Of a DNA stretch of 64,000 nucleotides, positions 1,364 to 63,810 are shown one piece after another (within the stretch, counting starts at the first letter, position 1; the number at the start of each line of letters is the position of its first letter). The notes below the pieces were generated by a model. The model saw only the letters and a list, made by a program, of their open reading frames with translations. It was not told the origin of the DNA and did not search any database. Where the stretch lies: assembly GCA_964415355.1 (NCBI GenBank), contig CAYPYS010000002.1, positions 74,475 through 138,474 of the forward strand. The letters run 5' to 3'. The translations under genes were made by a program, and so were the position numbers. The stretch is from an uncultured Planctomycetia bacterium (GTDB lineage Bacteria; Omnitrophota; Gorgyraeia; Gorgyraeales; Gorgyraeaceae).

Positions 1364-1394
1364 ACATTTCAACAACGTTAAAGTGTAAAGTTAG
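1364..1394. repeat. R1 palindromic element, 5'-truncated copy
   Basis: acatttcaacaacgttaaagtgtaaagttag. The PfkB-kinase stop (1378-1380) lies inside. Confidence 0.8.
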
Positions 1395-2322
1395 ATAGAA
1401 AAGAATTTACCTGCTTTATGTCTTTTATGCCTTTGCTGGAGCCTGGCTTGGTGCAGATCAAGGCAGATACTGCTGAGGCAAACTCGAGACATGGTTTTAT
1501 GTCGCCAAATACTTTCCTCTCTCCTTTTGTGACTATTTTATGCAGAAGCCCCGCTGTGAAGGCGTCTCCTGCGCCGATCGTGTCAGCTATTTTAACTTTA
1601 AAAGCCGGGCATTTGACTAACTTGCCGCTGGAATCCATGTAAGCAGAGCCTTTGGCTCCGAGCGTCAACACAAATTTGCAGTCAGCCATTTTTTTAAGCT
1701 TCTTCAGGCCTTTTTTCTGATCTTTTTGGCCTGTCAGGAAACGTAAATCTACTTCGCTTATTTTAGCCAGGTCTACCAGTCTTAGTAGATTTAAAACCCT
1801 GCCTTTGACTATTTTTTTATCCTTTATAGCGTAAGGCCTAATGTTTGGGTCAAATGATATAAACACATTTCTTTTCTTGAGATGCTTAATGTATTTTAAG
1901 GCTTCTTCGTAGGTTTCCTTTTGATATGAAAAGCTTGAGCCAAAATGGAAGCATTTGCAGGTATTTAATATCTCTCTCGGGGCATTTTTTAGCGGGACAA
2001 TCGAATCCTTGGCAGCATTTTTATAAAAGACATATTTTGAATTACCTGATTTATCAATGCTTGCTATGGCGAGCGAGGTGTGGATACCAGGGTCTTCGAT
2101 TAGGCCTTTTGTATTAACCCCGCATGATCTTAAGGACCTGACCGCGAATTCTCCCAGGGGATCCTTGCCGATCTTTGACAGCATAGCTGTTTTAAGGCCT
2201 AATTTCGCGCTTATTAAAGCCGAATTAGTAATAGAGCCGCCTGCAGAAGCCGTGAATCTTAGCTTATTTTTATCCTGGATGAGGTCTATAGAGGTGCCGC
2301 CTAAGAAGAGAACATCTATCAT
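1378..2322 (-). CDS. PfkB-family carbohydrate kinase (ribokinase/fructokinase-like)
   Basis: 314 aa. N-terminal GG motif region and C-terminal DTIGAGDAF PfkB signature. Confidence 0.75.
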   Translation of the reverse strand: MIDVLFLGGTSIDLIQDKNKLRFTASAGGSITNSALISAKLGLKTAMLSKIGKDPLGEFAVRSLRSCGVNTKGLIEDPGIHTSLAIASIDKSGNSKYVFYKNAAKDSIVPLKNAPREILNTCKCFHFGSSFSYQKETYEEALKYIKHLKKRNVFISFDPNIRPYAIKDKKIVKGRVLNLLRLVDLAKISEVDLRFLTGQKDQKKGLKKLKKMADCKFVLTLGAKGSAYMDSSGKLVKCPAFKVKIADTIGAGDAFTAGLLHKIVTKGERKVFGDIKPCLEFASAVSALICTKPGSSKGIKDIKQVNSFLSNFTL

Positions 2323-2330
2323 ATAACTCG

Positions 2331-2369
2331 CTAACTTTACATTTCAACAACGTTAAAATGTAAAGTTAG
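2331..2369. repeat. R1 palindromic element
   Basis: ctaactttacatttcaacaacgttaaaatgtaaagttag. Confidence 0.9.
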
Positions 2370-2380
2370 CTTATTTTGTT

Positions 2381-2719
2381 CTATGTTAAGAAATCCAGAA
2401 GATGCCGGCTAAAAAGCAGGAATATCAGCATCACGAGGACAATGATAATGCCGTATAACATCAAAAAGAGATGAGAATGAACAGTGTTTTTTAATAAAGC
2501 ACTGTAGTTTTCTCTTCTTGTCTCGTCGTAACGTGATAACTTGATCCTTTCGTCTCTGGATAAGCCGGGAAAATATGGTTTCCAGTGACGGCATTCATGT
2601 TTTCCTTTGTACCAACGATCAGAGCGCAAGCATTCGATCAGTAAGTTGGTTCCTCTGCCGAATTTGTTATGGCCTTTAAAGTTGCAATTTGCGCAAGATG
2701 TTAATGAAAGCCGACCCAT
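2381..2719 (-). CDS. Hypothetical Cys/His-rich protein with a C-terminal transmembrane segment
   Basis: ORF track, 112 aa. CANCNFKGH...HECRHW, then a hydrophobic tail LFLMLYGIIIVLVMLIFLLF. Confidence 0.35.
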   Translation of the reverse strand: MGRLSLTSCANCNFKGHNKFGRGTNLLIECLRSDRWYKGKHECRHWKPYFPGLSRDERIKLSRYDETRRENYSALLKNTVHSHLFLMLYGIIIVLVMLIFLLFSRHLLDFLT

Positions 2720-2750
2720 ATAATTTTAGCTAATGTATCCCAGGGTTATG

Positions 2751-2918
2751 TTATTTCTTTTTTCCTACCAAAAAATACAGAATCATTCCTACCACAGGTA
2801 ATACTAAGACCAAAACGACCCATAATGCCTTTTTGCCGGCGCTCATGGAGCTTTTTACCGCGTCTACAATAGCAATGATGTCTAGCACTACAATTATCAA
2901 TCCTAATAATCCGCCCAT
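2751..2918 (-). CDS. Small membrane protein (55 aa), PLD-nuclease N-terminal-domain-like
   Basis: Manual translation: MGGLLGLIIVVLDIIAIVDAVKSSMSAGKKALWVVLVLVLPVVGMILYFLVGKKK. GGAGG lies 5 nt upstream of the ATG. More plausible than the overlapping 81-aa track ORF 2746-2991. Confidence 0.45.
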   Translation of the reverse strand: MGGLLGLIIVVLDIIAIVDAVKSSMSAGKKALWVVLVLVLPVVGMILYFLVGKKK

Positions 2919-2941
2919 TTCCGCCTCCTTTTTTGGCTTTA

Positions 2942-3490
2942 TTAACGGCCTTCGTTTTCGTGTACAAGCTCGGCCAAATTCTCAAGGTCAAATTTAAAGG
3001 TCTTGTATTTGCCGCCTTTTTGCATGCTCATTAGCTGTACCCATAACTTGTATTTTTTGCCATCAACTACCTTGTCCGGCGGGATATCGAATAGCATGAG
3101 TTCCCTGGTCAAGGTACCTTTTGCTTTTTTGGTCTCTTTTCCTGAGCCAAAGGTTATAAATCCCTTGTCTTTTTTACTTGTCGGGTATGGCTCCTCATCT
3201 ACTACACCCTGGACGAGTATGGTCTTTGATTCGATGCTCAGGCGCCCTAATCTAGGCCCTACTATTATCGCATTGTGGATCTTTGGCTTTGTCTTGTACA
3301 TCCTGCCCGTTATCTTGGCTTCCAGGATATTTCCTTTTAGGTATGCTTCTACGGCGACTGTTTGTTTTTTGAACTCTTTGGCTTCTCTTAGCATTAGTAT
3401 AGGCTCGTCCTGCGCTTGCAGCACTGTCACCAGGCACGGTACGGATGATATTATGACGATAACCGCTAATAATAATGATATTTTTTTCAT
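2942..3490 (-). CDS. Secreted hypothetical protein (signal peptide)
   Basis: 182 aa. MKKISLLLAVIVIISSVPCLVTVLQAQ signal peptide. No recognisable catalytic motif. Confidence 0.5.
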   Translation of the reverse strand: MKKISLLLAVIVIISSVPCLVTVLQAQDEPILMLREAKEFKKQTVAVEAYLKGNILEAKITGRMYKTKPKIHNAIIVGPRLGRLSIESKTILVQGVVDEEPYPTSKKDKGFITFGSGKETKKAKGTLTRELMLFDIPPDKVVDGKKYKLWVQLMSMQKGGKYKTFKFDLENLAELVHENEGR

Positions 3491-4432: not shown

Positions 4433-4786
4433 TCAGAAAAGTCGTTTTTTTAAGAGTTTTACCCCTATTTCATATGCCGGGTCTTCCGCGTCATCTCTTG
4501 CGGTAAGCTCTTCGAACCACATTACCTTTGCCTTGGATGACAGGGATCCATTGCTATTAGGATCTTCTATTTCCAGTTCAACCGTATGCCCTTTCTGGAT
4601 CTTTTTGTCCACGGGGAACCTTAGGCCATTTCGGGAGATATTTTTTGTTATGCTTTCGCCTCGAGAATCTGACTCGGGATCGAAATATTTTAGCTTCAGC
4701 AGGGCGTCGTATCTCTTCGCGGATCTGCGATCGTCGACAAACCTTTCTTCTCGTTTTGTTTTAAATAACCTTGATGGTATTCTCAT
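4433..4786 (-). CDS. PilZ-domain protein (c-di-GMP receptor)
   Basis: RRSAKR (RxxxR) and NISRNG ([D/N]xSxxG) PilZ motifs. Confidence 0.7.
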   Translation of the reverse strand: MRIPSRLFKTKREERFVDDRRSAKRYDALLKLKYFDPESDSRGESITKNISRNGLRFPVDKKIQKGHTVELEIEDPNSNGSLSSKAKVMWFEELTARDDAEDPAYEIGVKLLKKRLF

Positions 4787-4799
4787 GTTTTACCTTGTT

Positions 4800-4838
4800 C
4801 TAACTTTACACTTTAACGTTGTTGAAATGTAAAGTTAG
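4800..4838. repeat. R1 palindromic element
   Basis: ctaactttacactttaacgttgttgaaatgtaaagttag. Lies between two PilZ genes and contains the stop of 4835-5173. Confidence 0.9.
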
Positions 4839-5173
4839 AGGTTATTGATGAGTCTGCTTATGTAAAGTAGTTGCCTATCCAGGAACTTTATGCCAGCTTC
4901 AAAATGTTCCTCGCTCTCTTTGCTCATAGGCTCATCCCAGATCCAGACTACCTTCCCCCTGCAGCGCGCTTTTATATCCGAGTTATACCTGAATATTTCC
5001 ATATCCAGCGTGGTTCCCGGAGATAGGCTTTTTAAAAGAGACATCCTGACCCCACCCGCGCTGATATTCTTTGTGGTTGTGCAGAATTCCCTATTGCTTC
5101 CAACGGGGCTATACCTTACTGCTAATTCTTTGTCCAGACGTTCGAAGATTCGGCTGTCTGTACTGATACGCAT
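4835..5173 (-). CDS. PilZ-domain protein
   Basis: RIFER (RxxxR) and NISAGG motifs. Stop codon lies inside the R1 repeat. Confidence 0.7.
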   Translation of the reverse strand: MRISTDSRIFERLDKELAVRYSPVGSNREFCTTTKNISAGGVRMSLLKSLSPGTTLDMEIFRYNSDIKARCRGKVVWIWDEPMSKESEEHFEAGIKFLDRQLLYISRLINNL

Positions 5174-5610
5174 GCACTCCCCCTTTCTTTGAACAGCTTT
5201 TCTACTTTGAATTTATTTATTGCCCTGAAAGAGAAAAAATATGCAAATGGAGATACAGTGGGATTGACCAATTGATCAATAAAGATATGCAGGGCCAGGC
5301 TCATGGTCGCGTATATCCATAAGATGTTTAGATCGAACCTGAAGATGAGCAGCCATGATATGAGCACTATTTCATATGAATGCAGGAAAATCACTATTTT
5401 GTCAAAATTCTTGTAACTGTCCCTGCACTCGACGTATATTTTTTTGAGATCGAAACCCAGGCCGCGTTCTCTGACATAATCTATATAGTGATCGATGTCT
5501 ATAAGCACGCCTGCCGAGAGAAACATAAAGAAACCGGGCACAGACTGAGTGGCTTTATAAAGTATGCTTCCCAGGGTCAGCGTGATTATGGAATGTCCAA
5601 TAACACTCAT
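5122..5610 (-). CDS. Integral membrane protein, possible YdjM/DUF457-type metal-dependent hydrolase
   Basis: 162 aa, His-rich TM helices (GHS..., LHIFID). 3' end overlaps the PilZ gene by 52 nt. Confidence 0.4.
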   Translation of the reverse strand: MSVIGHSIITLTLGSILYKATQSVPGFFMFLSAGVLIDIDHYIDYVRERGLGFDLKKIYVECRDSYKNFDKIVIFLHSYEIVLISWLLIFRFDLNILWIYATMSLALHIFIDQLVNPTVSPFAYFFSFRAINKFKVEKLFKERGSACVSVQTAESSNVWTKN

Positions 5611-6527
5611 TCTAGTTTTGTGCCGTCATAAGGACAATAGTTGGTCTTGCCCGAGTAGATTTTTCTGCAGACAGGACACATTACCTTAAGAGGCTGTTCT
5701 TTGTTGGGCTCAGACGCTAAATTTGTAATTTTTTGCTCTTCAGATCGAGAAGATGGTGTTGCTGGTTTTTGCTCAGGGTCATTGTCAGCTTTATTTATTA
5801 TTTCCGGTATCTCGTTTTTTAGCATTTTTATTCTCTGTGACGCGTAGGGGTGGGTGCGTAAAAATAAAATGCCCTTTCCGCCCTTATCTTTTTTTTCCAG
5901 TTTTTCAAGGAATGTTATCATGGCGTTGGGATCGTAACCGGCTTTGTACGCATATTTTACCCCAAGCCTGTCTGACAGGAGCTCGTCTTCCCTGGAATAA
6001 CCGAGCATGATCAGATTGTAGCTGATAGAGGCCGCTTGTCGCAATTCCCCTAGTCCTGCCTTTTGGGCGGCGATGTTCATTAATATGTCGTATCCGATTT
6101 TAGCCTGAAGTTTTTTAACTATATGACGCGCTGCGACGTGTCCGATTTCATGGCCTACCACGCAGGCGAGTTCGTTGTCAGTGGATTCTTCGATAAGACC
6201 TGAGTTTACGTAGATATAGCCGCCTGGTGTCGCAAAGGCATTGAGTTCCTCGTCTTCTATAACAGAAAAATTATACCTTAGATCTTTTCGGTCCGATACC
6301 TTGGCTAATTCAGAACCTATTTTATTTAGTCGTTTTATTTTTTTCTGGTCGTTGCTTATTTTGTACTGCGTTGATACTTTGGTGGCGACTGCTTTTCCTA
6401 AAGAGACCTCAGCGGGGGTGCCTATGAAGATAAACTCGTTCTGGCCGGTTGCGGGGTTATATATGGTGGCGCAGCCCGATAAAGCGAATGAAGTTGCCAA
6501 TAATAATATTAGACAACACTTTGACAT
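5607..6527 (-). CDS. M48-family Zn-metallopeptidase lipoprotein (BepA/YcaL-like) with a C-terminal zinc ribbon
   Basis: Lipobox LSGC. HEIGH in VVGHEIGHVAARH. C-terminal CPVCRKIYSGKTNYCPYDGTKLE. Confidence 0.8.
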   Translation of the reverse strand: MSKCCLILLLATSFALSGCATIYNPATGQNEFIFIGTPAEVSLGKAVATKVSTQYKISNDQKKIKRLNKIGSELAKVSDRKDLRYNFSVIEDEELNAFATPGGYIYVNSGLIEESTDNELACVVGHEIGHVAARHIVKKLQAKIGYDILMNIAAQKAGLGELRQAASISYNLIMLGYSREDELLSDRLGVKYAYKAGYDPNAMITFLEKLEKKDKGGKGILFLRTHPYASQRIKMLKNEIPEIINKADNDPEQKPATPSSRSEEQKITNLASEPNKEQPLKVMCPVCRKIYSGKTNYCPYDGTKLE

Positions 6528-6567
6528 ATTTGCAACACCTTTGATGGTAGGTTACAAATCCGCTTGC

Positions 6568-6606
6568 CTAACTTTACATTTCAACAACGTTAAAGTGTAA
6601 AGTTAG
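6568..6606. repeat. R1 palindromic element
   Basis: ctaactttacatttcaacaacgttaaagtgtaaagttag. Confidence 0.9.
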
Positions 6607-6608
6607 CT

Positions 6609-7061
6609 TTATGCTGTTAGCAATTTTTGAACTATTGAGGTGACTAGTTTTCCGTCAGCCTGCCCTTTTAACTCCTGCATGGTTAATTTCATTACCTTGC
6701 CAAAGTCGGATTTTGAACGTGCTCCTGTCTCGGCTATGATCTTTTTTATTATCTCTTCGACCTTGTCGTCTCCCAGCTGTTCAGGCAGATACGATTTAAG
6801 TATCTTGAGTTCCTTTGTCTCTTTTTCAGCCAGGTCAGCCCTGTCCCCTTTTTTAAAGCTTTCAATGGAATCATTTCGCTGCTTTGCCTGTTTTGATAGC
6901 ACCTTGATTACGTCCTGATCTTCAAGCGCGCCTACCTTTTTTTCGATAGCAAGGTTTTTCATCGAGGCGATCATCATGCGGAGCGTCGAGGTGCGGAGCT
7001 GGTCTTTATTTTTAATAGAATCCTTAAGGTCATTCGTTATTTTTTGTTCAAGTTTTCCCAT
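6609..7061 (-). CDS. GatB/YqeY-domain protein
   Basis: 150 aa. Typical YqeY length and charged helical composition (…LRMMIASMKN…). Confidence 0.65.
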   Translation of the reverse strand: MGKLEQKITNDLKDSIKNKDQLRTSTLRMMIASMKNLAIEKKVGALEDQDVIKVLSKQAKQRNDSIESFKKGDRADLAEKETKELKILKSYLPEQLGDDKVEEIIKKIIAETGARSKSDFGKVMKLTMQELKGQADGKLVTSIVQKLLTA

Positions 7062-7077
7062 TCAGGACCTCTCTTTT

Positions 7078-7488
7078 TTATTTATTAGCTTTTGAAGGCG
7101 CCTTTATCTTCAGGCTATCCAGCTCGCTCAGTTTTCCTACCTTTTTATACATCAGATCGCATAAAAACCTTAGAAAGGTATTTTTGTTGTCTTCTTCAAC
7201 ATCGCTAAATTCAATTCCGGCTCCGTAAGACGGACCTTTATTAGTACCGATCTCTTTTGACCACATCACTATACCGTTTAGATGGGCCGGATTCAGCGCG
7301 CCCGGGATAAATATTTTTAACATCAGCTTGTTGCCGTTTTCCAGCTTTTCTTCCGTTAAGAGCTGTAATCCCCCGGCGCTTACGTCTTTAGTTATCCCTG
7401 TTCTTTCAAGCTTAATATCCTTCTTTTGGACGATAAAATTTACTTTCAGGGAGATATCGAACCTTATAAATCTTCTTTTCTCTTTCAT
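7078..7488 (-). CDS. PilZ-domain protein
   Basis: RRFIR and DVSAGG motifs. Confidence 0.7.
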   Translation of the reverse strand: MKEKRRFIRFDISLKVNFIVQKKDIKLERTGITKDVSAGGLQLLTEEKLENGNKLMLKIFIPGALNPAHLNGIVMWSKEIGTNKGPSYGAGIEFSDVEEDNKNTFLRFLCDLMYKKVGKLSELDSLKIKAPSKANK

Positions 7489-7490
7489 GG

Positions 7491-7982
7491 TCAGCTCACT
7501 TCCTTTATTGTTAGTTTCGGGCGAGCAATAGATTTGTATATCACCCCAGCCTCTTTAAAAAGAGGCAAAAAACTTTTATCCGCATACTCGCCGCAGGTTA
7601 TAAAACTTTTCACCTTTGCGTTTACGATCATTTTGGCGCACAATATGCAAGGAGAATGAGTGCAATAAATAGTACTACCATCTATATTAATGCCATGAAG
7701 ACCTGCTTGTATTATAGCGTTCTGCTCTGCGTGTATCGCGCGGCATATTTCGTGCCTTTCGCCTGAAGGTATGCCTTTTTCATTTCTCAGGCAGCCGAGT
7801 TTCAGGCAATCTTTTACCCCTCTCGCGGCCCCGTTGTATCCCGTAGTGAGTATGTGCTTGTCCCTGACGATCACTGCGCCCACGTGATGCCTGCGGCATG
7901 TGGAACGCTCTGCGACCAGAAAAGACATCTTTAAAAAATATTCATCCCAATCAGGTCTTTGGATTCTTTTCGATCGCTTCAT
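7491..7982 (-). CDS. dCMP (deoxycytidylate) deaminase, ComEB-like
   Basis: HAEQNAI and PCILCAKMI zinc-binding motifs. N-terminal RPDWDEYF. Confidence 0.8.
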   Translation of the reverse strand: MKRSKRIQRPDWDEYFLKMSFLVAERSTCRRHHVGAVIVRDKHILTTGYNGAARGVKDCLKLGCLRNEKGIPSGERHEICRAIHAEQNAIIQAGLHGINIDGSTIYCTHSPCILCAKMIVNAKVKSFITCGEYADKSFLPLFKEAGVIYKSIARPKLTIKEVS

Positions 7983-8499
7983 CTATCTTTCTGCGGAATT
8001 CTTTCAGCCCGGAGTCGTTTACGATGATCACATCGGCCATGCCCAGGCATTTTCTAAGCTGCTGGTTATTTTTTTCTTCCTTGTTTTCTTTTTCTTCTTT
8101 TTTAATAAATTCTTCCAGGGTTTTTGCGTCTCCGGGCCTTTTTCTCTTCAAGCCTCTTTCGTGCCTTAATTTTACAGGCGCGTTTACCCCTATTAATACA
8201 AAATCATCCAGTTTTCTGAGCTCAGCTATCTCTTCCGGGTTTCTTATGGAGTCGACTACATGGTCTTCTTTTTTTAGCAGCTCTTCTTTTATTCTGACCG
8301 CTAAGCAGGAAGGCCCGAATTCTTCCCTGAGCTCATTTCCTAATCTTATAAGGTTTTCGCGCAGGGGTTCTATTTTTCTTTTTATCGCCTCATCTCTTAA
8401 TACATCTGAAAGAGAATGATAAAGAAACCCCTTGGATTTTATATAAAGAGCAGCTTCGCCTTTTCCCGAAGCATTAGGACCGGTGAGTCCTATGATCAT
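7951..8499 (-). CDS. P-loop nucleotide/nucleoside kinase (dephospho-CoA-kinase-like fold)
   Basis: Walker A GLTGPNASGKGE at the N-terminus, 182 aa. Overlaps the deaminase gene by 32 nt. Confidence 0.5.
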   Translation of the reverse strand: MIIGLTGPNASGKGEAALYIKSKGFLYHSLSDVLRDEAIKRKIEPLRENLIRLGNELREEFGPSCLAVRIKEELLKKEDHVVDSIRNPEEIAELRKLDDFVLIGVNAPVKLRHERGLKRKRPGDAKTLEEFIKKEEKENKEEKNNQQLRKCLGMADVIIVNDSGLKEFRRKIDEAIEKNPKT

Positions 8500-8500
8500 G

Positions 8501-8827
8501 CTATTTCACTGTTGAGCCTGGCGAAATGTCTTTGTCAGGAGAAAGGACTACTATTTTTTCGCTGTCAGAAGCCGCTAGCACCATGCCCTTACTTTCGACG
8601 CCACGAATCGTAGCAGGCTCTATGTTTTCGACCACAGCCACTAGTTTTTCCTTTAGATCTTCCGGCTTATAAGACTTTTTTATCCCTGCGACTACTTCTC
8701 TTTCTTCTGAGCCCAGGTCTATCTTTAGGATATAAAGCTTATCGGCATTAGGGTGGTCTTTTACCTCTTTTATTCTGGCTATTTTTATGTTCAGTTTCTT
8801 GAATTCCTCAAATGGAATCATGATCAT
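8501..8827 (-). CDS. tRNA-binding domain protein (CsaA/Trbp111/EMAP-like)
   Basis: KDHPNADKLYILKIDLG ... GMVLAASD. Start reassigned to MIMIPFEEF (ATG at 8827), giving an ATGA overlap with the upstream PilZ stop. Confidence 0.7.
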   Translation of the reverse strand: MIMIPFEEFKKLNIKIARIKEVKDHPNADKLYILKIDLGSEEREVVAGIKKSYKPEDLKEKLVAVVENIEPATIRGVESKGMVLAASDSEKIVVLSPDKDISPGSTVK

Positions 8828-9183
8828 GCCCTCGCCTTCTCTAGCTCGGAAAACATAAGACCGCATATGTATTCCAAGAAGTTGTTTTTTGCTTTCAGGT
8901 CTATTTCTTCGAATTTAATCCCAATGTCTATTTTACCAGCTTTTTCGCCAACTGTCCATACTACCTTGCCTATGGCAGAAATAGGCCTTAGTAGTGCTGG
9001 TATGAAGATTTCCATCTCAAGCCAATCCCCTTTTTTAATCTGCTTTGGTAATAATGCTCTTATGCCGCTGGGGCTTATGTTTTTAGTGACGGCTTTTTTT
9101 GGCGGCGTCTTCGAATCCTTGATCTTATAGGTAAAGTCCAAGGCTGCTTCTAATCTGATATACTTTCTTCTCTCTTTTATCAT
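8824..9183 (-). CDS. PilZ-domain protein
   Basis: RRKYIR and NISPSG motifs. Confidence 0.7.
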   Translation of the reverse strand: MIKERRKYIRLEAALDFTYKIKDSKTPPKKAVTKNISPSGIRALLPKQIKKGDWLEMEIFIPALLRPISAIGKVVWTVGEKAGKIDIGIKFEEIDLKAKNNFLEYICGLMFSELEKARA

Positions 9184-9311
9184 ATGCTATAGCCTCCATT
9201 GTCGAATATTGCGGTTTTACTGGGGAATTTTACAGATATGCAAGGTGGATTTCTTCGCGGGGATGGCACGCCTGTACCTGTGCCTAGCAAGGTTATTTCC
9301 ATATTTTCTGT

Positions 9312-9349
9312 TAAGTATACATTTTAACGTTGTTGAAATGTATACTTAG
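9312..9349. repeat. R1v (GTATACA-arm variant) palindromic element
   Basis: taagtatacattttaacgttgttgaaatgtatacttag. Contains the stop of 9346-9825. Confidence 0.85.
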
Positions 9350-9825
9350 TCTTTGACCACCTTTAGCTTGTTTAAATGCGTTAGTAATATGGCTTCTGAT
9401 TCAGGAGCTATCTTTATAAATTTTATCCCTACGTAAAACAGGCGCCTGCCTCGCTCATCCTGAGACTGCATGTCCTTTATCCACATAACCTGTCCTATAA
9501 ACTTCACGGGCTTTGAAAACCCGGGGACCTCTACCTCTAGATCAAGATGTTTCTTTTCATTAAGTTTTTCATAGGTCAGAAGACAGAGTCCTTTTTTTGA
9601 AAGATTTATAGTCTTGGATTCCTGGAAACGGGGCGCTTTGGGCAATAGATTGTATCCGATCTTAAGGTTCTCATCAAACCTGACATACATCCTTCTTTCC
9701 CTCAGCTCCCAGAATTTCCTGGCCAGGCCATGGGTAGTGCTTTTTTTAAGCCTTTTCTCCTCGTTTTTTAGCAGGATCAATATTATACATAAAAATATCA
9801 GTAAGGTTGAATAAAATAAATACAT
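9346..9825 (-). CDS. PilZ-domain protein with an N-terminal TM anchor
   Basis: N-terminal hydrophobic helix, RERRMYVR and INLSKKG motifs. Stop inside the R1v repeat. Confidence 0.65.
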   Translation of the reverse strand: MYLFYSTLLIFLCIILILLKNEEKRLKKSTTHGLARKFWELRERRMYVRFDENLKIGYNLLPKAPRFQESKTINLSKKGLCLLTYEKLNEKKHLDLEVEVPGFSKPVKFIGQVMWIKDMQSQDERGRRLFYVGIKFIKIAPESEAILLTHLNKLKVVKD

Positions 9826-9827
9826 CT

Positions 9828-10907
9828 CTATACCTCGACCAGTTCGTATTGACTCGACCCTAATTTTATTTTTTCACCGTAATTTATTTGTATCGAGGGA
9901 TCTATTTCAGGAAAGATTTCTTTGAATTTACCCATGCCTATCAGGTCAATGCTCGCTTTGTCTATTGCGACAGGGTCGAGCCCGCCTATTATTCCGATAT
10001 CTTGCGTGATAGGGGTTTCGTTTTTTGACATACAGTCACAATTCTTGGTTATATTATATAATAAGTTCATGTACGCTATCTTGGAATTCAGCGCCTTTTT
10101 TACCCCTAGGGCATATTCTACCATCTTTTCCTGGAATTTTGCAACATTTTCGTCATATTTTATCTCGATCGCGCCTGTCCGGCAGATCACAGTGCATTCT
10201 CCGCAGCCAATGCATCTTTCCTTTACCAATATGGCCTTTTTCTTTTTTATGCCTATGGCGTTGGCTGGACAGATATCCATGCATGAGCCGCAGCCGATGC
10301 ATTTATCGGCTGTTATCTCAGGGATGGTCTTGGAATGCTGCTGTAGCTTGCCGGCGCGGGAAGCGCAGCCCATGCCGAGGTTTTTAAGGGCTCCTGCGAA
10401 GCCTGTTTGCATGTGACCTGTTATGTGGGAAAGGCATGCAAGGGAGTCACTTTCGCATATCCCTTTCGCCAGCTTAACGTTTTCAAAATGATCGCCCTGG
10501 ATCGGCACATTCTTGGTGTCCCTGCCCAGAAGGCCGTCGCCTATTATTATAGGAATGCCCAGGCTTTGTAAGCTGAATCCATGTTTGTGCGCGACATTGA
10601 GATGACCGACAGCGTTTGATCTTTTTTCTCTATAGAGCGTATTTGTCTCAGCGACGAATAGATTTTCTGTTTTTTGTTCTTTGAGATACCTTATTAAATC
10701 CAGAAGCCAGTCAGGCTTGATGTAGCCTGAGGTCCCCTCTTCGCCGAAGGTCAGTTTTATCGCAAGAAAATCACCTTTATTGACGAGTCCCGGGGTTTCT
10801 ATTTGTTGCCAGACAGACAGGAGGGCCCTTCCTACCTCGTCTTTTGCTGACCAATCATTGATCCTTTTAAGATATACCTTTGTTTTTTCTGTCTTGGGCT
10901 TCTGCAA
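9828..10907 (-). CDS. DUF362-type protein with two 4Fe-4S ferredoxin motifs
   Basis: CIGCGSCMDICP and CIGCGECTVIC clusters. 359 aa. Confidence 0.55.
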   Translation of the reverse strand: MQKPKTEKTKVYLKRINDWSAKDEVGRALLSVWQQIETPGLVNKGDFLAIKLTFGEEGTSGYIKPDWLLDLIRYLKEQKTENLFVAETNTLYREKRSNAVGHLNVAHKHGFSLQSLGIPIIIGDGLLGRDTKNVPIQGDHFENVKLAKGICESDSLACLSHITGHMQTGFAGALKNLGMGCASRAGKLQQHSKTIPEITADKCIGCGSCMDICPANAIGIKKKKAILVKERCIGCGECTVICRTGAIEIKYDENVAKFQEKMVEYALGVKKALNSKIAYMNLLYNITKNCDCMSKNETPITQDIGIIGGLDPVAIDKASIDLIGMGKFKEIFPEIDPSIQINYGEKIKLGSSQYELVEV

Positions 10908-11982: not shown

Positions 11983-12512
11983 CAGCGTTTTTCCATGTAG
12001 ATATTTCTAATAGCGTTGAGGGCATCTATGTATTCCCTGGCCCTGTAGTCAGGATACGTCCAGTCTGTTGGTTGAAAGCCTGATTTTCTCCACATTAGCG
12101 TTACTTCGCCGTATATGCCGTCTCTCAGATAGAGTCTGTGGCAGTAATCTTTTGTTGTGGCAAGGACGAATTTCGAATCAGACAGGTATCCTGGATCTAT
12201 GTTTATGCGTCTCTTTACTCCGCCATTTTTCTTTACAGAGAGATCGTCCTCGAGAGAGTTTGTGGCGAGTTTTATCTGCGGCAGGCGTTCCGGTGATATG
12301 CGCTCTTTAAAAGAGATGAATTTTCTATTCAGCGGGTGCCCCATCTCTTCTTTGTAATAATCTGTATATTTAAATGGGATCAAGGAGCTCTTATAGTCAG
12401 TAGGCCCGAATTCTTTAATAAAAAACTCTTCGATATCGTCGAAGAGTTTTTTATTTTTTGCCAACATGCCTATGACTAATTTGACTTGCTGAGGAATCTT
12501 TGTTTTCCCCAT
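11982..12512 (-). CDS. Hypothetical protein (DUF4416-like)
   Basis: 176 aa. FIKEFGP...IDPGYL pattern. Family assignment from memory only. Confidence 0.4.
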   Translation of the reverse strand: MGKTKIPQQVKLVIGMLAKNKKLFDDIEEFFIKEFGPTDYKSSLIPFKYTDYYKEEMGHPLNRKFISFKERISPERLPQIKLATNSLEDDLSVKKNGGVKRRINIDPGYLSDSKFVLATTKDYCHRLYLRDGIYGEVTLMWRKSGFQPTDWTYPDYRAREYIDALNAIRNIYMEKR

Positions 12513-12519
12513 ATCGTGT

Positions 12520-13002: not shown

Positions 13003-13011
13003 TTTTAAGGC

Positions 13012-13050
13012 CTAAGTTTACACTTTAACGTTGTTGAAATGTAAAGTTAG
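13012..13050. repeat. R1 palindromic element
   Basis: ctaagtttacactttaacgttgttgaaatgtaaagttag. Contains the stop of 13047-13448. Confidence 0.9.
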
Positions 13051-13448: not shown

Positions 13449-13455
13449 GATTTCT

Positions 13456-50578: not shown

Positions 50579-50597
50579 TATAAAATACTCAATCCAT

Positions 50598-53431: not shown

Positions 53432-53470
53432 CTAACTTTACATTTTAACGTTGTTGAAATGTAAAGTTAG
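53432..53470. repeat. R1 palindromic element
   Basis: ctaactttacattttaacgttgttgaaatgtaaagttag. Contains the phosphohexomutase stop. Confidence 0.9.
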
Positions 53471-54892: not shown

Positions 54893-54932
54893 CTTAAGTT
54901 TACATTTCAACAACGTTAAAGTGTAAACTTAA
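54893..54932. repeat. R1 palindromic element with a compensated G/C arm swap
   Basis: cttaagtttacatttcaacaacgttaaagtgtaaacttaa. Contains the rpe stop. Confidence 0.85.
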
Positions 54933-55625: not shown

Positions 55626-55651
55626 GGATTCCCGCGTTCGCGGGAATGACA
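55626..55651. repeat. R2 hairpin element
   Basis: ggattcccgcgttcgcgggaatgaca, directly upstream of the rpe SD (AGGAGA). Confidence 0.85.
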
Positions 55652-58392: not shown

Positions 58393-58431
58393 CTAACTTT
58401 ACACTTTAACGTTGTTGAAATGTAAAGTTAG
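58393..58431. repeat. R1 palindromic element
   Basis: ctaactttacactttaacgttgttgaaatgtaaagttag. Contains the trpA stop. Confidence 0.9.
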
Positions 58432-59213
58432 CTTTTTAATGATCTTACAAATCTGCCGACTTTTTTAACTAAATCTCCCTTGCCGATGTTCTTTTCGACG
58501 ATTTTTATAATAGCGCTCCCGACGATAACGCCGTCAGCCAATCTTGATATTGACTTTACCTGTTCAGGCTTGGAAATACCAAAGCCTACGCATAAAGGCC
58601 TCTTTGTCATCTTTTTTATTTTTTTCAGGCTGTTCGTGATCTCCTTGGGCAATTCTTTCCTGGCTCCGGTGGTGCCGGTCAGCGAGACATAATAAATAAA
58701 TCCTGTGCTGGCTTTAGATATCATCTTTATTCTTTCTTTGGAACTAGTAGGGGCCAGAAGGTGTATTATTGAAAAGTCATTCTTCTTTCCCGCGCGGCGT
58801 AGTTCTCCTGATTCTTCGGGAGGAAGGTCAGGGATGACGATGCCATCTACGCCAGAAGACTTTGCTTTCTTAACGAATTTCTCTAATCCGCGATGATATA
58901 CAAGATTATAATACGTCAAGAAAACTATGGGGATGGGGGTTTTTGTTCTGATGCTTTTTACAAGATCGCATACTAGATCCATGTTTATTTTATTCTTTAG
59001 CGCGCGTTCCGATGAGCGTTGTATAGTCGGTCCGTCTGCGAGAGGGTCTGAAAACGGCACGCCTAACTCGATGATGTCAGCGCCCTGCTTTTCTAATTCG
59101 AATATAAGTTTTCTTGTAACAGAAAGATTCGGATCCCCTGCCATTATAAAAGCGACAAACGCCTTCTTGCGTTTTTTCTTCAGTTCTTTAAATTTTTTAT
59201 CTATACGGTTCAT
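58428..59213 (-). CDS. trpA: Tryptophan synthase alpha chain
   Basis: IELGVPFSDPLADGPTIQ signature. Confidence 0.85.
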   Translation of the reverse strand: MNRIDKKFKELKKKRKKAFVAFIMAGDPNLSVTRKLIFELEKQGADIIELGVPFSDPLADGPTIQRSSERALKNKINMDLVCDLVKSIRTKTPIPIVFLTYYNLVYHRGLEKFVKKAKSSGVDGIVIPDLPPEESGELRRAGKKNDFSIIHLLAPTSSKERIKMISKASTGFIYYVSLTGTTGARKELPKEITNSLKKIKKMTKRPLCVGFGISKPEQVKSISRLADGVIVGSAIIKIVEKNIGKGDLVKKVGRFVRSLKS

Positions 59214-59224
59214 AAATCACTGTC

Positions 59225-59263
59225 CTAACTTTACATTTCAACAACGTTAAAGTGTAAAGTTAG
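59225..59263. repeat. R1 palindromic element (between trpB and trpA)
   Basis: ctaactttacatttcaacaacgttaaagtgtaaagttag. Contains the trpB stop. Confidence 0.9.
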
Positions 59264-60435
59264 GCGTACACGTCTTTTATTATATCTATGTCTTTATCGC
59301 CCCTGCCGGAAAGACATACGACAATAATCTTATTTTTGGTTAGTTTCGGCGCGAGTCTCTTTACCGCGTAGTAAATCGCGTGACTCGGTTCCAGCGCCGG
59401 TATAATCCCCTCTGCTTCGCATAAGATCTTAAATCCCTCGAGTGCTTCTTTGTCTGTCACGGATACATATTTTGCCCTGCCGGTTTCTTTGTAATAAGAG
59501 TGTTCAGGGCCTACGCCTGGATAATCTAATCCGGCAGAGATCGAATGAGCAACTGTTATTTGACCATCTTTACTTTGCAATAGATAGCTTTTGCTCCCAT
59601 GTAATACGCCTGGCTTTCCTTTGCAGAGAGCTGCGCCATGTTTTCCGCTGTCCAGGCCTAGCCCGCCCGCCTCCACGCCTATAAATTTAACCTTTGTATT
59701 GAAAAATGAATGAAATATCCCTATTGAGTTGCTTCCTCCTCCGACGCACGCAACCAAATAATCCGGAAGTTTCTTTTCATATTTTAAAATTTGCCTCTTT
59801 GACTCTTTGCCTATTATAGCTTGAAAATCCCTGACCATTGCAGGATATGGGTGCGGACCTACGACAGATCCGATTATGTAATGAGTTGTCCTTACGTTTG
59901 TGACCCAGTCTCTTATTGCTTCATTGGTAGCGTCTTTTAAAGTCTTGCTGCCAGAGTGCACAGGGATAACTCTTGCACCCAGGAGTTTCATTTTAAATAC
60001 ATTGAGCTTTTGCCGCTCTATATCCTCTACGCCCATATAAACGTCGCATGGAAGACCGAATACAGCTGCAGCGGTAGCGGTTGCGACTCCGTGCTGGCCT
60101 GCCCCTGTCTCTGCTATTATGCGTGACTTGCCCATCTTTACAGCGAGGAGCGCCTGGCCGAGCGTATTGTTTATTTTGTGCGCGCCTGTGTGGAGCAGGT
60201 CCTCTCTCTTTAGATATATCCTTGCACCATATTTCTTAGAGAGATTTTTGGCAAAGTAGAGCGTTGTTGGTCTGCCTGCGTAAACGCTCAGCAAGCTATT
60301 CAGCTCTCGTTTGAATTTAGTATCCCGGAGAGCTTTTTTATATTCTTTCTCGAGCTCTTGAAGCGCTACCATAAGCGTTTCAGGCACAAACTTTCCACCA
60401 AAACCCTGAAATTTACCCCTTTTATCAGGCAGCAT
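59260..60435 (-). CDS. trpB: Tryptophan synthase beta chain
   Basis: [14 protein letters not shown]-lysine motif. 391 aa. Confidence 0.9.
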
Positions 60436-60504
60436 ATATTTCCCCCATATATAGCTTATAAATTATATAGTAAAAAAGGCAGGGTGTCAATAGTAAGGCT
60501 GAAA

Positions 60505-60542
60505 TAAGTATACATTTCAACATTGTTGAAATGTATACTTAA
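60505..60542. repeat. R1v variant palindromic element
   Basis: taagtatacatttcaacattgttgaaatgtatacttaa. Confidence 0.85.
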
Positions 60543-62503: not shown

Positions 62504-63114
62504 TTTTTAAAAAGACTTATTTTTTTCTCTTCACCCTTTCGCAATCGCTTTAAGTTAGACTTATGTTTGTATACGATAATAACGCACAGGATGCTCATGA
62601 ATACGATTATTTCCGTTGGTTCGCCGAATATTAACGTGAATATCGGGATTGCAACAGAGGCTAAAATCGAGGCGACCGACACATACCCTGTCAGGAAGAA
62701 CGCTATTGCCCATGCCAGGAAACCGAGCCAGAATATCTTAGGTATGAGCCCTATGACGACGCCTGCGCTTGTAGCGACACCTTTACCGCCTTTAAATTTC
62801 AGAAATACCGGCCAGTTATGACCGGTTATCGCGGCCATGCCGCACAGGACCTGATATAATTCAGGCCTCGTTACCGGCGTTATATACAGGAATGAATTTG
62901 CGATTAAAGTCGTTGCCATATATCCTTTGAATATATCTATGGCCAGTACGATGATCGCCGGCACCCTGCCTATTACCCTGGAAGCATTTGTAGCACCTAC
63001 GTTCCCGCTTCCATATTGTCGTATATCGACGCCCTTAAGTAATCGCGCGAATATGTAGGCCGTGGGCACTGATCCAATTAAATAAGCAACTATTACTCCT
63101 AAAAATAATACCAT
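62500..63114 (-). CDS. plsY: Glycerol-3-phosphate acyltransferase PlsY
   Basis: GSGNVGATN motif, multi-TM, 204 aa. Confidence 0.85.
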   Translation of the reverse strand: MVLFLGVIVAYLIGSVPTAYIFARLLKGVDIRQYGSGNVGATNASRVIGRVPAIIVLAIDIFKGYMATTLIANSFLYITPVTRPELYQVLCGMAAITGHNWPVFLKFKGGKGVATSAGVVIGLIPKIFWLGFLAWAIAFFLTGYVSVASILASVAIPIFTLIFGEPTEIIVFMSILCVIIVYKHKSNLKRLRKGEEKKISLFKK

Positions 63115-63125
63115 GAGTTCCTTTT

Positions 63126-63151
63126 GGATTCTCGCTTTCGCGGGGATGACA
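63126..63151. repeat. R2 hairpin element, divergent copy
   Basis: ggattctcgctttcgcggggatgaca, directly upstream of the plsY SD. Confidence 0.75.
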
Positions 63152-63155
63152 GCGC

Positions 63156-63196
63156 CTTAAGTATACATTTTAACATTGTTGAAATGTATACTTAAG
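63156..63196. repeat. R1v variant palindromic element (adjacent to R2)
   Basis: cttaagtatacattttaacattgttgaaatgtatacttaag. Confidence 0.85.
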
Positions 63197-63205
63197 AAAA
63201 GTGAT

Positions 63206-63763
63206 TTAAGATTTTTGGAGTTCACTTAGCTGTTTCGAGCCGCGCCATATATAGTCTATGCCGGAAAGCGCAGTAAAAAATACAGCCGGATAAATAAGGA
63301 ATTTATTGTATTTAAAAATTGCAAGAATTGCCAATATGGATATCATCTGGAAAAAAGTAGTTATTTTTCCGAGAAAGCTCGGTTTTATAGCTATATTTCC
63401 TTTTAAAAAATAGATCACCAAAGAACCGAGTACGATTATAATATCTCTGGTTATGACTGTAAGGACTGCCCACGCAGGAATGCGGATATCAGCGGGTATA
63501 TTGCCAATAACCGAAAGAGTAATGAATGCACTCGATATCAGAAGCTTGTCGGCAATTGGGTCCAAGATGATACCTAATTCAGTCACTTCTCCGCGACTTC
63601 GAGCAATGCCTCCGTCGATAGCATCTGCGAATGCGGCTATTGCAAAAAGAGCCAAGGCTGCGAACCTCAGAAAGGTCCGTCCCTCGCCATAATACAAAAG
63701 ACTGGCTATAAAAAATGGTATTAAAAGTATGCGAAAGATTGTAATTTTATTAGCTAGATTCAT
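63206..63763 (-). CDS. pgsA: CDP-diacylglycerol--glycerol-3-phosphate 3-phosphatidyltransferase (CDP-alcohol phosphatidyltransferase family)
   Basis: DAIDGGIARSRGEVTELGIILDPIADK CDP-OH motif. Confidence 0.8.
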   Translation of the reverse strand: MNLANKITIFRILLIPFFIASLLYYGEGRTFLRFAALALFAIAAFADAIDGGIARSRGEVTELGIILDPIADKLLISSAFITLSVIGNIPADIRIPAWAVLTVITRDIIIVLGSLVIYFLKGNIAIKPSFLGKITTFFQMISILAILAIFKYNKFLIYPAVFFTALSGIDYIWRGSKQLSELQKS

Positions 63764-63771
63764 AGCATTCT

Positions 63772-63810
63772 CTAACTTTACACTTTAACATTGTTGAAAT
63801 GTAAAGTTAG
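63772..63810. repeat. R1 palindromic element
   Basis: ctaactttacactttaacattgttgaaatgtaaagttag. Contains the stop of the partial terminal CDS. Confidence 0.9.

Follow-up and report, generated by a model that had tools for sequence, protein, structure and literature searches.

The 39-nt palindrome R1 is very probably a REP family that, with its cognate RAYT, makes up a "REPtron" in a clade of Candidatus Omnitrophota, because a RAYT gene is bracketed by R1 copies in relatives. The window, by which we mean the whole stretch analyzed, comprises 64,000 nt of contig CAYPYS010000002.1 (GCA_964415355.1) from an uncultured Candidatus Omnitrophota bacterium. The sequence-only reading had counted 26 copies of this AT-rich element in the 64 kb. 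We recovered this number, at a density of one per 2.46 kb: 23 copies are full length, one is truncated, one is split, and one is a solo arm. A Hamming scan of the window gave 24 sites, to which an nhmmer profile added the split copy (21420-21489) and the solo arm (50534-50545). The chance expectation is zero copies, and a pattern search of the window allowing up to three mismatches returned 18 sites compared to none in 100 shuffles. Both orientations are present, as reverse complements of each other (~11 versus ~12 copies). An assembly artifact is unlikely, since nine contigs from other samples are 99.7 to 99.96% identical across the elements; the sole gap opening among these contigs, that of L057, may or may not coincide with an R1 copy.

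Within R1, the TAA...TTA bases are invariant while the outermost bases vary, the ends reading CTAAC/GTTAG or CTTAAG, and stop codons are found in all three frames of both strands. Many copies share an identical sequence, mismatches included, and a AGTATACA subfamily accounts for 4 of 24 copies in the window. Single arms are confined to broken copies: of the occurrences of the 8-mer ACTTTACA, 34 fall inside R1 and 4 elsewhere, two of these four being remnants. The unit is 41 nt in one relative (the element size range being given as 33 to 41 nt) and begins with CT in both lineages. In the relative CAYULJ01, it is sharply delimited by CTTAAG on both sides in 85 to 92% of copies.

R1 pairs end to end as an 18-bp stem with a 3-nt loop. 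The 11-bp outer stem proposed from the sequence was correct, while the inner region described as partly paired is in fact part of the same continuous stem. Both orientations contain a single G.U pair and a single C.A mismatch, and the predicted RNA minimum free energies are -15.0 and -13.3 kcal/mol (z-scores of -5.8 and -5.2) for the two orientations. When 54 distinct copies, drawn from the window and a relative, were compared, 95.5% of stem cells were paired, and compensatory double changes accounted for 52 cells versus 25.3 ± 4.3 in shuffles (0 of 500 reached 52). Pair 5/35 is GC in 33 of these copies and CG in 17, and pair 8/32 is UA in 41, CG in 11, and AU in 2. The hairpin is maintained via compensatory changes at four stem positions. 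No U-tract follows the window copies on the sense strand, in agreement with the view that R1 is not a classical intrinsic terminator; a canonical GC-rich terminator with a U-tract is present in the window at 50662-50631.

Every copy lies between genes or overlaps a stop codon only. Between minus-strand genes, R1 is found in 23 of 31 spacers that exceed 25 nt, compared to 0 of 47 shorter junctions, and in 14 copies the stop of the upstream gene is R1's own TAA. R1 supplies the stop of PilZ genes 4835-5173 (copy at 4800-4838), 9346-9825 (9311-9349, AGTATACA subfamily, at a junction that is empty in L073 and L074), and 13047-13448 (13012-13050, absent from L073 and present in CAYULJ01 with compensated arm changes). 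It also supplies that of the HIT gene 25255-25716 (25220-25258, followed by an R2 repeat), of a 50-amino-acid ORF at 38207-38359 (38172-38210), and of the YjbQ gene (45514-45552; L063 has no copy and a gap of 2 nt). The truncated copy, at 1364-1394, retains 31 nt of the element, and the upstream gene (1378-2322) stops at its inner TAA. Pfam confirmed that the copy at 4800-4838 separates adjacent PilZ genes (4835-5173 and 4433-4786), and the genome is rich in such genes.

Other copies fit closely between stops and starts. The copy at 2331-2369 is 11 nt past the stop of 2381-2719 and 8 nt ahead of the PfkB gene (1378-2322), that at 31452-31490 is 7 nt past a stop and 4 nt ahead of the next ATG, and that at 63772-63810 is 8 nt ahead of the start of a CDP-alcohol phosphatidyltransferase gene. 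Those at 6568-6606 and 32548-32586 each lie 2 nt past a stop, of the YqeY and PFK genes, respectively; CAYULJ01 also has a copy at the YqeY junction, at another offset. Two copies mark operon ends: 15449-15487, 20 nt past the stop, where relatives have a different ~300-nt element, and 43047-43085, directly upstream of a promoter-like site (TTGACA-17-TACAAT). A copy in a divergent intergenic region (16729-16767) is conserved in L079, a metagenome contig with 86.6% identity to the window. An RNase III gene is located at 18157-18921. The split copy at 21420-21489 is degenerate, with a 34-nt hairpin inserted after the outer arm, and the solo arm CTAACTTTACAC at 50534-50545 adjoins two R2 repeats. 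Three further AGTATACA copies are found at 45986-46024 (the orthologous L063 copy being split at its center by a ~160-nt insert), at 60504-60542 (where the helicase gene stops, ahead of the trpB promoter and at a synteny breakpoint), and at 63157-63195 (followed by an R2 repeat, with the orthologous CAYULJ01 copy flipped).

R1 copies have been gained, lost, and flipped in place among relatives. The family is also present in relatives at 78 to 87% DNA identity and was found in several Omnitrophota genomes and metagenomes, with none found in viral contigs, marking it as lineage specific. The relative L063, whose Pgm protein is 93% identical, is missing R1 at the trpB-trpA, trpA-manC, rpe-pgm, and yjbQ-pyrF junctions. 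The trpB-trpA copy (59225-59263) sits between genes that Pfam confirmed as trpB (59260-60435) and trpA (58428-59213), as had been read from the sequence, and these genes overlap (ATGA) in L063 and L072. The trpA-manC copy (58393-58431) is present in CAYULJ01, and the rpe-pgm copy (54894-54932) is a clean 35-nt presence/absence difference at TTAA. The window and L063 share the copy at 48526-48564, identical at 39 of 39 positions and lying between the Pfam-confirmed RACo (48561-50531) and CooC-like (47782-48513) genes, and that between lepA and lepB (51595-51633), which is inverted in place. Between pgm and lepA (53432-53470), the spacer in relatives holds a hairpin of another kind or a different repeat, or is missing altogether. 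A second compared region showed further presence/absence differences, and R1 is much scarcer in a sister lineage. At the six sites compared, the net insertion measured 35, 35, 36, 38, 41, and ~50 nt, values that yield no single clean cut-and-paste rule.

As the sequence-only reading had noted, the window itself has no transposase or RAYT: none of the 70 ORFs scanned matched a transposase family, with nine ORFs having no Pfam match of any kind. An IS200/IS605-type tyrosine transposase was found in relatives. In CAYULJ01, a metagenome-assembled genome (MAG), L041:1560-2351 encodes a 263-amino-acid protein with the motifs NHIHLLL and YIHHNPV. It matches Pfam Y1_Tnp at 35.6 bits (cutoff of 23), and it hits a single NCBIfam model, "REP-associated tyrosine transposase" (E = 1e-17, 64 bits versus an equivalog cutoff of 80). 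The best PDB fold match of its AlphaFold model (pLDDT of 86) is 4er8_A, E. coli TnpAREP with a REP hairpin (E = 1.5e-6, TM of 0.76 on the target, 158 of 165 residues aligned), which outranks the IS200, IS608, and ISDra2 transposases. One R1 copy lies 18 nt ahead of the ATG of this gene, and the last five codons and the stop are within a second. RAYT is bracketed by R1 on both sides in CAYULJ01 and in a JGI contig, which supports the suggestion of a REP/MITE-like, genome-wide element.

This arrangement recurs. A 75% identical RAYT (L141) is bracketed alike, by two R1 copies in inverted orientation, and three lineages carry the gene at one shared locus downstream of thrC. Gene and repeat vary together: a RAYT with 51% identity has a diverged R1 variant on its flanks, and one with 48% identity, at a different locus, has a 39-nt palindrome unrelated to R1. 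RAYT is flanked by the lineage's own palindrome in four lineages. Homologues with 78% identity (L142 and L143) come from sample series SUTE22-1 and SCRA20-1, which also hold contigs 99.7 to 99.96% identical to the window. R1 ahead of these genes matches the window copy at 9311 at 38 of 39 positions, and rayT in L141 and L142 has flanking copies of the AGTATACA subfamily, which is the less common type in the window. The tie of the L142/L143 RAYT to the window's own genome, through the sample series and the R1 subtype, is circumstantial.

We propose that a domesticated HUH/tyrosine transposase (RAYT = TnpAREP) was most likely responsible for spreading R1. By analogy with characterized RAYTs, this enzyme would bind folded, single-stranded R1, cut it at the element ends, and rejoin it elsewhere; this cleavage and transfer activity, the cleavage sites, and the single-stranded route are predictions. 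R1 would survive only where harmless, here in short spacers at gene 3' ends, and with stops in all frames it could overlie a stop codon or take its place. Since the hairpins are transcribed within operons, they probably alter mRNA ends or processing as a side effect, with no selection for such an effect evident here.

Were R1 instead a MITE moved by an IS630/Tc1-mariner-type DDE transposase, inserting at TA (NTAN) with TA duplication, the RAYT would be coincidental, and we consider this very unlikely. R1 does consist of two inverted arms with an invariant TAA...TTA inside variable outermost bases, three empty/filled comparisons fit a 35- to 36-nt insertion at TTAA or CTAA, and longer elements (59, ~100, and ~200 nt) share R1 ends. 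However, other empty/filled pairs gave 38 and 41 nt, and R1, at 33 to 41 nt, is under the usual MITE size. The compensated arm variants at four positions point to base pairing as opposed to a fixed double-stranded end, and the CTTAAG...CTTAAG unit of CAYULJ01 is too specific for a target preference when about half of the copies supply a stop codon. The association of RAYT with its own lineage's palindrome in four lineages also argues against coincidence. Pfam found no DDE transposase on the window ORFs, and the relatives' ORFs were screened by an HUH/Tyr motif that is blind to DDE; this absence carries little weight, as IS copies are lost from MAGs. A regular-expression arm scan of the window and some of the loci (~0.5 Mb in all), the other loci being scanned with different patterns, found no long element with R1 ends, which likewise weighs little.

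We give similarly small credence to R1 being an intercistronic RNA hairpin selected by the host, for 3' end protection, RNase III cutting, or attenuation, and not one dispersed by a transposase. Both orientations give a stable hairpin, and copies inside operons fall after a stop codon and before the following ribosome-binding site, in a window that encodes RNase III (18157-18921). Several junctions keep some hairpin across lineages despite a change of family, and orthologous copies keep perfect pairing at ~80% flank identity. Against this, R1 showed no orientation bias relative to transcription even with the G.U versus C.A asymmetry (CAYULJ01, 15 versus 8; window, 6 versus 10), and no U-tract follows. 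Close relatives without R1 at the same junctions have overlapping genes or 2- to 20-nt spacers, R1 is much scarcer in the sister lineage, and identical copies that include their mismatches point to copying as opposed to convergent selection. The candidate roles named in the sequence-only reading (mRNA stabilizer, punctuation, uptake signal, or binding site) are thus hypothetical or disfavored. That R1 is a DNA-level signal, either an inverted pair of uptake sequences or a site for a dimeric nucleoid or partition protein, is extremely unlikely: the copies are dense and in both orientations, the genome is PilZ rich, and the outer arms (GTTTACAC / GTGTAAAC) presumably bear a loose resemblance to parS half-sites, but uptake sequences are common as single copies inside genes and no solo half-sites of that kind were found outside broken copies, compensated changes in both arms are not predicted by a protein half-site, and copies come and go among close relatives.

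The REP-RAYT reading can be placed against known systems. Like an intrinsic terminator, R1 is a stem-loop downstream of genes, but its stem is AT-rich, lacks a U-tract, and lies inside operons a few bases ahead of the next start. Like Correia (NEMIS, Neisseria), RUP, and Nezha, it is an inverted-repeat element beside genes with TA/TTAA targets and a cotranscribed hairpin, and Correia hairpins are RNase III substrates. Correia and IS630-type MITEs, however, are 100 to 150 nt or longer, with internal sequence and a DDE origin, whereas no parent of R1 was found. With IS200/IS605 and their non-autonomous derivatives (PATEs), the R1 partner shares a related Y1 HUH fold, hairpin ends recognized as single-stranded DNA (a prediction for R1), and plausibly seamless gain and loss. 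In contrast to IS200/IS605, R1 is gene-less with one hairpin rather than two subterminal ones, its RAYT keeps one position downstream of thrC in three lineages, and IS608/ISDra2 TnpA is a weaker fold match than TnpAREP.

Among REP/RAYT systems, we compared E. coli REP/BIME with YafM, Pseudomonas REPINs, and Stenotrophomonas SMAG, the "REPtrons" of Proteobacteria. R1 differs from these in its Omnitrophota host (no paper linking RAYT to Omnitrophota was found in the literature searched), its density of ~1 per 2.5 kb, its AT-rich sequence, the lack of a GTAG or CGTC head, and its single copies rather than BIME/REPIN doublets. R1 is also almost fully symmetric and therefore has hardly any orientation; one RAYT group uses perfect palindromes (PMC8266576). 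The Omnitrophota RAYT differs as well, at 263 to 300 amino acids with an extra C-terminal helix-turn-helix and a score under the NCBIfam equivalog cutoff. As in Proteobacteria, R1 is a short palindrome (20 to 50 nt) with hundreds of intergenic copies, its hairpin is kept by complementary mutations, and its ends can provide the stop codon of the flanking ORF, as REP ends often do (PMC3733652). Its HUH/Tyr transposase gene is at a fixed locus with inverted R1 copies on both sides, and the best fold match of the encoded protein is E. coli TnpAREP (4er8).

The R1 repeats, 39-nt palindromes found between the genes of this window, are very probably the repetitive extragenic palindromes (REPs) of an Omnitrophota REPtron, as the defining marks of a system of REPs and their HUH/tyrosine transposase (RAYT) are present. 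Searching the window with the 39-mer CTAACTTTACAYTTYAACGTTGTTGAARTGTAAAGTTAG gave 18 sites at three or fewer mismatches, compared to none in 100 shuffles. A looser threshold raised this to 24 sites, including a truncated copy at 1364-1394, and an nhmmer-type profile search of the window added a split copy with a 34-nt insert beyond the outer arm (21420-21489) and a solo arm (50534-50545). These make up the 26 copies counted in the sequence-only reading, against a chance expectation of 0 in 64 kb. All of the copies are in spacers or overlap nothing but a stop codon, and all are single; even the nearest neighbours, at 45514 and 45986, are separated by 434 nt. Across the elements, nine contigs of other samples agree with the window at 99.7-99.96% identity, and thus the copies are not assembly artefacts. 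When these nine were compared at strain level for R1 insertion polymorphism, we found a single gap opening (contig L057), which may lie inside or outside an R1 element.

R1 pairs end to end: its 39 nt fold into a stem of 18 bp closed by a 3-nt loop, and either orientation contains a single G.U pair plus a single C.A mismatch. The predicted RNA minimum free energies were -13 to -20 kcal/mol (z-scores -5 to -9), with values by orientation of -15.0 and -13.3 kcal/mol (z -5.8 and -5.2). When 54 distinct copies, some of the window and some of a relative, were compared, we found that 95.5% of stem cells were paired and that four stem positions carried compensated variants: 5/35 (GC 33, CG 17), 7/33 (UA 46, AU 6), 8/32 (UA 41, CG 11, AU 2), and 12/28 (CG 33, UA 9). 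Double changes occurred in 52 cells, compared to 25 +/- 4 in shuffles (0 of 500 were as high), and pairing dropped to 20-48% in slid registers; the arms of the stem covary. The ends are symmetric: those of the window copies are CTAAC...GTTAG, and those of CAYULJ01, a related metagenome-assembled genome (MAG) rich in R1, are CTTAAG...CTTAAG. Some variants keep the outer 11-nt arms but have an additional hairpin of 26-34 nt following the left one (window 21420-21489 and eight CAYULJ01 loci, e.g., L004 2634-2692), and there are further elements of about 100 nt with R1 ends.

To follow R1 between relatives, we compared the window junction by junction with L063, a contig of a lineage whose Pgm protein is 93% identical to that of the window. 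L063 is without R1 at trpB-trpA, where the genes overlap (ATGA) as they do in the outgroup contig L072, and also at trpA-manC, yjbQ-pyrF, and rpe-pgm. The last is a clean 35-nt difference, with CCG-TTAA-GAAG in L063 and CCG-TTAA-[31 nt]-TTAA-GAAG in the window. Other copies are common to both: the one at RACo-cooC is identical at 39 of 39 positions, the one at lepA-lepB is in the opposite orientation in L063, and the one between the pterin-binding gene and yjbQ is split at its exact centre in L063, where about 160 nt are inserted. R1 is therefore gained, lost, and flipped in place between relatives. In a second region, the copies at 13012 and 9311 are missing from the related contig L073, and the former is present in CAYULJ01. 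At two junctions with R1 in both the window and CAYULJ01, the distances of the two elements to the native stop codon are unequal, by 2 and 5 nt, which suggests that these copies arrived independently. Orthologous copies show compensated arm differences, and their centres and ends match the consensus of their own genome. The L063/L073 lineage is far poorer in R1, with two full and two modified copies in 21 kb and none in 8.9 kb, compared to 13 copies in the window stretch homologous to those 21 kb. Synteny also breaks exactly at R1 copies (60504-60542 and 59225-59263). At the first of these, CAYULJ01 matches the window on the helicase side only (higher coordinates) and L063 on the trpB side only (lower coordinates); such copies may be recombination points.

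The net sizes at empty and filled pairs were 35, 35, 36, 38, 41, and about 50 nt, with those of 35-36 nt lying at TTAA or CTAA. Because the ends are palindromic and divergence is about 15%, a duplication of TA, of TTAA, or none at all would fit. The three 35-36-nt indels would also agree with R1 being a MITE of an IS630/Tc1-like DDE transposase that duplicates TA, but we consider this improbable. The net sizes of 38, 41, and about 50 nt do not fit, R1 is too small, and the compensated arms and sharp CTTAAG ends would be left unexplained. In addition, no parent insertion sequence (IS) with R1 ends and a DDE transposase was seen in an arm scan of about 0.5 Mb or by Pfam among the window ORFs, an absence weakened by the fact that MAGs under-represent IS copies. 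A search of the window and the comparison loci (about 0.5 Mb) for a longer, autonomous form bounded by R1 ends gave none: the solo arms there were all parts of R1 copies split by 26-160-nt inserts. Integron attC sites, with ends GTTAGGC and CTAAC, were likewise dropped: the flanks are syntenic housekeeping genes, and the element alone is gained or lost.

Other repeats lie near R1. A second hairpin family, R2 (consensus GTCATTCCCGCGAAAGCGGGAATCC), has six copies in the window, at 21388-21412, 25190-25214, 50555-50579, 50598-50622, 55626-55650, and 63126-63150, four of which adjoin an R1 copy or remnant. The R2 copy between the M16 peptidase gene and rpe is a 29-nt presence/absence difference relative to L063, and the more distant contig L071 has an R2-like GTCATTGCGAGG... 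repeat. An element of about 160 nt with terminal hairpins GCATGGAATTTTTAAATTCCATGC and AACAAGTTACGAGCGAAGCGAGTAACTTGTT is inserted at the exact R1 centre in two genomes. Its copies are at L063 18809-18970, L014 6965-7125, and L021 4179-4341, the last within the signal-peptide region of an ORF, and an Rfam search of the insert region at E <= 1 gave no match. A 251-aa metallo-beta-lactamase-fold gene is reduced to a 40-aa stub (MEITLLGTGTGV...) at window 9180-9302; this gene, which has a Pfam match to anti-Pycsar Apyc1, is intact at the same position in L073 and L074.

We then related R1 to the genes around it. The element contains stop codons in all three frames (positions 2, 15, and 31) and, because it is a palindrome, in three frames of the other strand. 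In 14 of 24 window copies, the upstream gene stops at the TAA of positions 2-4, and in one more it stops at an inner TAA. For the 105 CAYULJ01 copies, with both strands counted, there are 56 cases of an ORF stopping at the terminal TAA. The start codon of the next gene is mostly 4-20 nt past the element. R1 occupies 23 of the 31 window spacers longer than 25 nt that separate minus-strand genes and none of the 47 shorter junctions. Pfam bears out the names that the sequence-only reading gave to genes around copies inside operons (trpB/trpA, RACo/CooC-like, and adjacent PilZ genes), and its statement that the window has no transposase holds among the 70 ORFs scanned. Small single-domain PilZ genes number at least eight within 13 kb (4433-16657), and the sole Rfam match in the window at the gathering threshold is a tRNA (28162-28232, minus strand).

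The two forms of R1 are reverse complements of each other, as had been noted from the sequence, and are nearly equal in frequency (11 versus 12) even though the minus strand carries at least 69 of the 78 called ORFs. This strand bias is extreme across the whole window, with an AT skew near -0.2 and a steady drop in cumulative GC skew. No U-tract follows R1 on the sense strand, and no copy is among the intrinsic-terminator calls on that (minus) strand, where a canonical terminator is called at 50662-50631. R1 does not have the GC-rich stem and subsequent U-tract on the transcribed strand that characterize an intrinsic terminator. Constraint at the RNA level was examined with a wobble/orientation test in which the direction of flanking genes was taken from AT skew, ORF-based calls having been dropped since spurious antisense ORFs made them too noisy. 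Copies showed no significant preference for one orientation relative to transcription, even at pairs that are G.U one way round and C.A the other (CAYULJ01, 15 versus 8; window, 6 versus 10), and this speaks against a strand-specific RNA function being under selection. A hairpin kept by host selection for its action in RNA would suit the location of R1 inside operons, but its random orientation, the identity of its copies, and the relatives that have no element make this explanation quite unlikely. An uptake or protein-binding signal is more improbable still given the arm covariation and the lack of solo half-sites: DUS/USS are short motifs common singly and also inside genes, whereas an arm scan and the profile search gave no single arms outside broken R1 copies or remnants.

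Scanning one genome per species, we found the R1 core in Candidatus Omnitrophota MAGs. The main carrier is CAYULJ01 (labelled "uncultured Planctomycetia"), whose fetched loci (332 kb) contain 110 copies; its dominant form is CTTAAGTTTACACTTTAACATTGTTGAAGTGTAAACTTAAG. Homologues of two window proteins were from Omnitrophota in every named case. Four R1-bearing lineages have 78-87% DNA identity to the window, and in the metagenome JACKQG01 the window-type element is on many short contigs, frequently at their ends. The viral contigs searched had no copy. R1 is also absent in relatives whose Pgm protein is 77-81% identical, and other palindromic repeat families fill the same junctions. In the distant contigs L070, L071, and L072, palindromic or inverted-repeat families such as TTCTCGACT...TCGAGCGAA units and GGGTACACCCTACTTTGAAAGTG... 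units are at trpB-trpA, trpA-manC, rpe-pgm, pgm-lepA, and lepA-lepB. Hairpin repeats invading gene junctions seem to be general across Omnitrophota.

The sequence-only reading had proposed looking beyond the window for an IS200/IS605-type transposase, and such a gene, rayT, was found in relatives with R1 on its flanks. We screened every ORF of at least 90 aa in the fetched sequences for an HUH motif with Y..[NQ] behind it, and the single match was a 263-aa protein of CAYULJ01 (L041:1560-2351) with the motifs NHIHLLL and YIHHNPVRAGLV. It matched Pfam Y1_Tnp at 35.6 bits (cut-off, 23), with weak C-terminal helix-turn-helix (HTH) matches. Its only NCBIfam match was "REP-associated tyrosine transposase" (64 bits, E = 1e-17), below the 80-bit equivalog cut-off. 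Since PDB searches by sequence alone (single sequence or profile) gave no significant match for the catalytic domain, we turned to its fold. An AlphaFold model built from 35 homologues (pLDDT 86) had as its top PDB match 4er8_A, the complex of E. coli TnpAREP and a REP hairpin, which aligned over 158 of 165 residues (E = 1.5e-6; TM for the target, 0.76), with the IS200, IS608, and ISDra2 transposases below it (TM 0.55-0.67). Residues N75, H76, H78, S133, Y135, and N139 are invariant in the 35 homologues. Homologues number more than 1,000, and nearly all of the named ones are from Omnitrophota.

The rayT gene is bracketed by the palindrome of its own lineage. In L041, the upstream R1 ends 18 nt 5' of the rayT ATG, and a second R1 takes in the stop codon and the five codons before it (LKFTL). 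The layout is the same for a 75% identical homologue on contig L141, where the two R1 copies are mutual reverse complements at the asymmetric positions; the inverted orientation is thus clear in L141 and partial in L041. A 51% identical rayT (L144) has a diverged variant, AACAACTTGACA...TGTCAAGTTGTT, on both sides in an orientation unreadable from the sequence, with one tandem pair of the variant upstream. At another locus, in a further Omnitrophota genome (L145), a 48% identical homologue is flanked by an unrelated 39-nt palindrome; this homologue and a GIY-YIG gene (5720-6637 and 9148-9441) lie within an ATP synthase operon. The 78% identical homologue P0243 is on two short contigs (L142 and L143) of the SUTE22-1 and SCRA20-1 series, which also include contigs 99.7-99.96% identical to the window. 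Its gene is preceded by CTAAGTATACATTTCAACAACGTTAAAATGTATACTTAG, a 38/39 match to the window copy at 9311; both contigs end at the rayT 3' end, so the R1 flank is seen on the one visible side. The assignment of this rayT, which is outside the window, to the window's own genome is circumstantial. A RAYT gene is expected to be single-copy and vertically inherited; L041, L142, and L144 share a thrC-rayT neighbourhood (protein identity 51-78%, on contig fragments). Between the upstream R1 and the RAYT start is an A8G8 run (AAAAAAAAGGGGGGGG) at L041 1542-1559 and L141 about 318-338, with AAAAAAAAGGAGG at that spot in L142; this homopolymer could make RAYT expression variable.

Taken together, we believe that R1 is mobilized as a REP. 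RAYT would move it via a folded single-stranded intermediate and may cut at the ends of the unit, by analogy with E. coli TnpAREP, for which the cleavage dinucleotide is CT (PMC8266576); the R1 unit starts with CT in both lineages. The stop-rich ends could allow copies that land on stop codons to survive, and transcribed hairpins might affect mRNA ends or processing by RNase III, a gene for which is in the window (18157-18921). A broader hypothesis, doubtful as a whole, is that R1 and its RAYT are jointly a distinct REPtron class, a device for stop-codon placement, a functional punctuation of the genome, and a driver of rearrangement. Here, a RAYT with an added C-terminal HTH would recognize a head-less, fully symmetric 39-41-nt hairpin and target it to stop codons, at or directly over them, with R1 supplying three-frame stops on both strands. 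R1, which fills 23 of the 31 longer spacers, would then serve as standard intergenic "punctuation" in a compact genome and would separate or stabilize cistrons, e.g., via RNase III. If this were true, R1 flipping and its coincidence with synteny breaks would drive genome rearrangement in Omnitrophota. In practical terms, R1 breaks assemblies (many metagenome contigs end in it), can mislead the annotation of stop codons and operons, and marks rearrangement points.

To our knowledge, REP-RAYT systems have been studied almost exclusively in Proteobacteria, and our literature search gave no paper in which Omnitrophota are connected with RAYT or repeats of this kind. For E. coli TnpAREP, a GTAG head is required. 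REPs are palindromes of 20-50 nt that number in the hundreds and whose copying mechanism is still unresolved; in one group of RAYTs, the palindromes are perfect (PMC8266576). The head is a conserved tetranucleotide on one side of the palindrome, mostly GTAG, or CGTC (PMC8266576, PMC3733652), and REP ends are a frequent source of the stop codon of the flanking ORF (PMC3733652). Like REPs, R1 is a short stem-loop palindrome within this size range, high in copy number and extragenic, and rayT is flanked by the palindrome of its own lineage in relatives. Unlike classic REPs, R1 has neither a GTAG nor a CGTC head, a defining feature, and is AT-rich and nearly symmetric; its copies are single, in contrast to BIME/REPIN doublets, and its density of about 1 per 2.5 kb is three times that of REPs in E. 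coli. The Omnitrophota RAYT differs from the classic one in being longer, in its C-terminal HTH, and in its NCBIfam score under the cut-off. The REP-RAYT partnership thus occurs in an uncultured small-genome phylum in a stripped-down form, with one symmetric AT-rich hairpin and a longer RAYT with a DNA-binding tail, and offers a contrasting natural test case for how RAYT recognizes and places its substrate. R1 is REP-like in its working and has the key association with RAYT, yet it is a variant and not a textbook member of the family.
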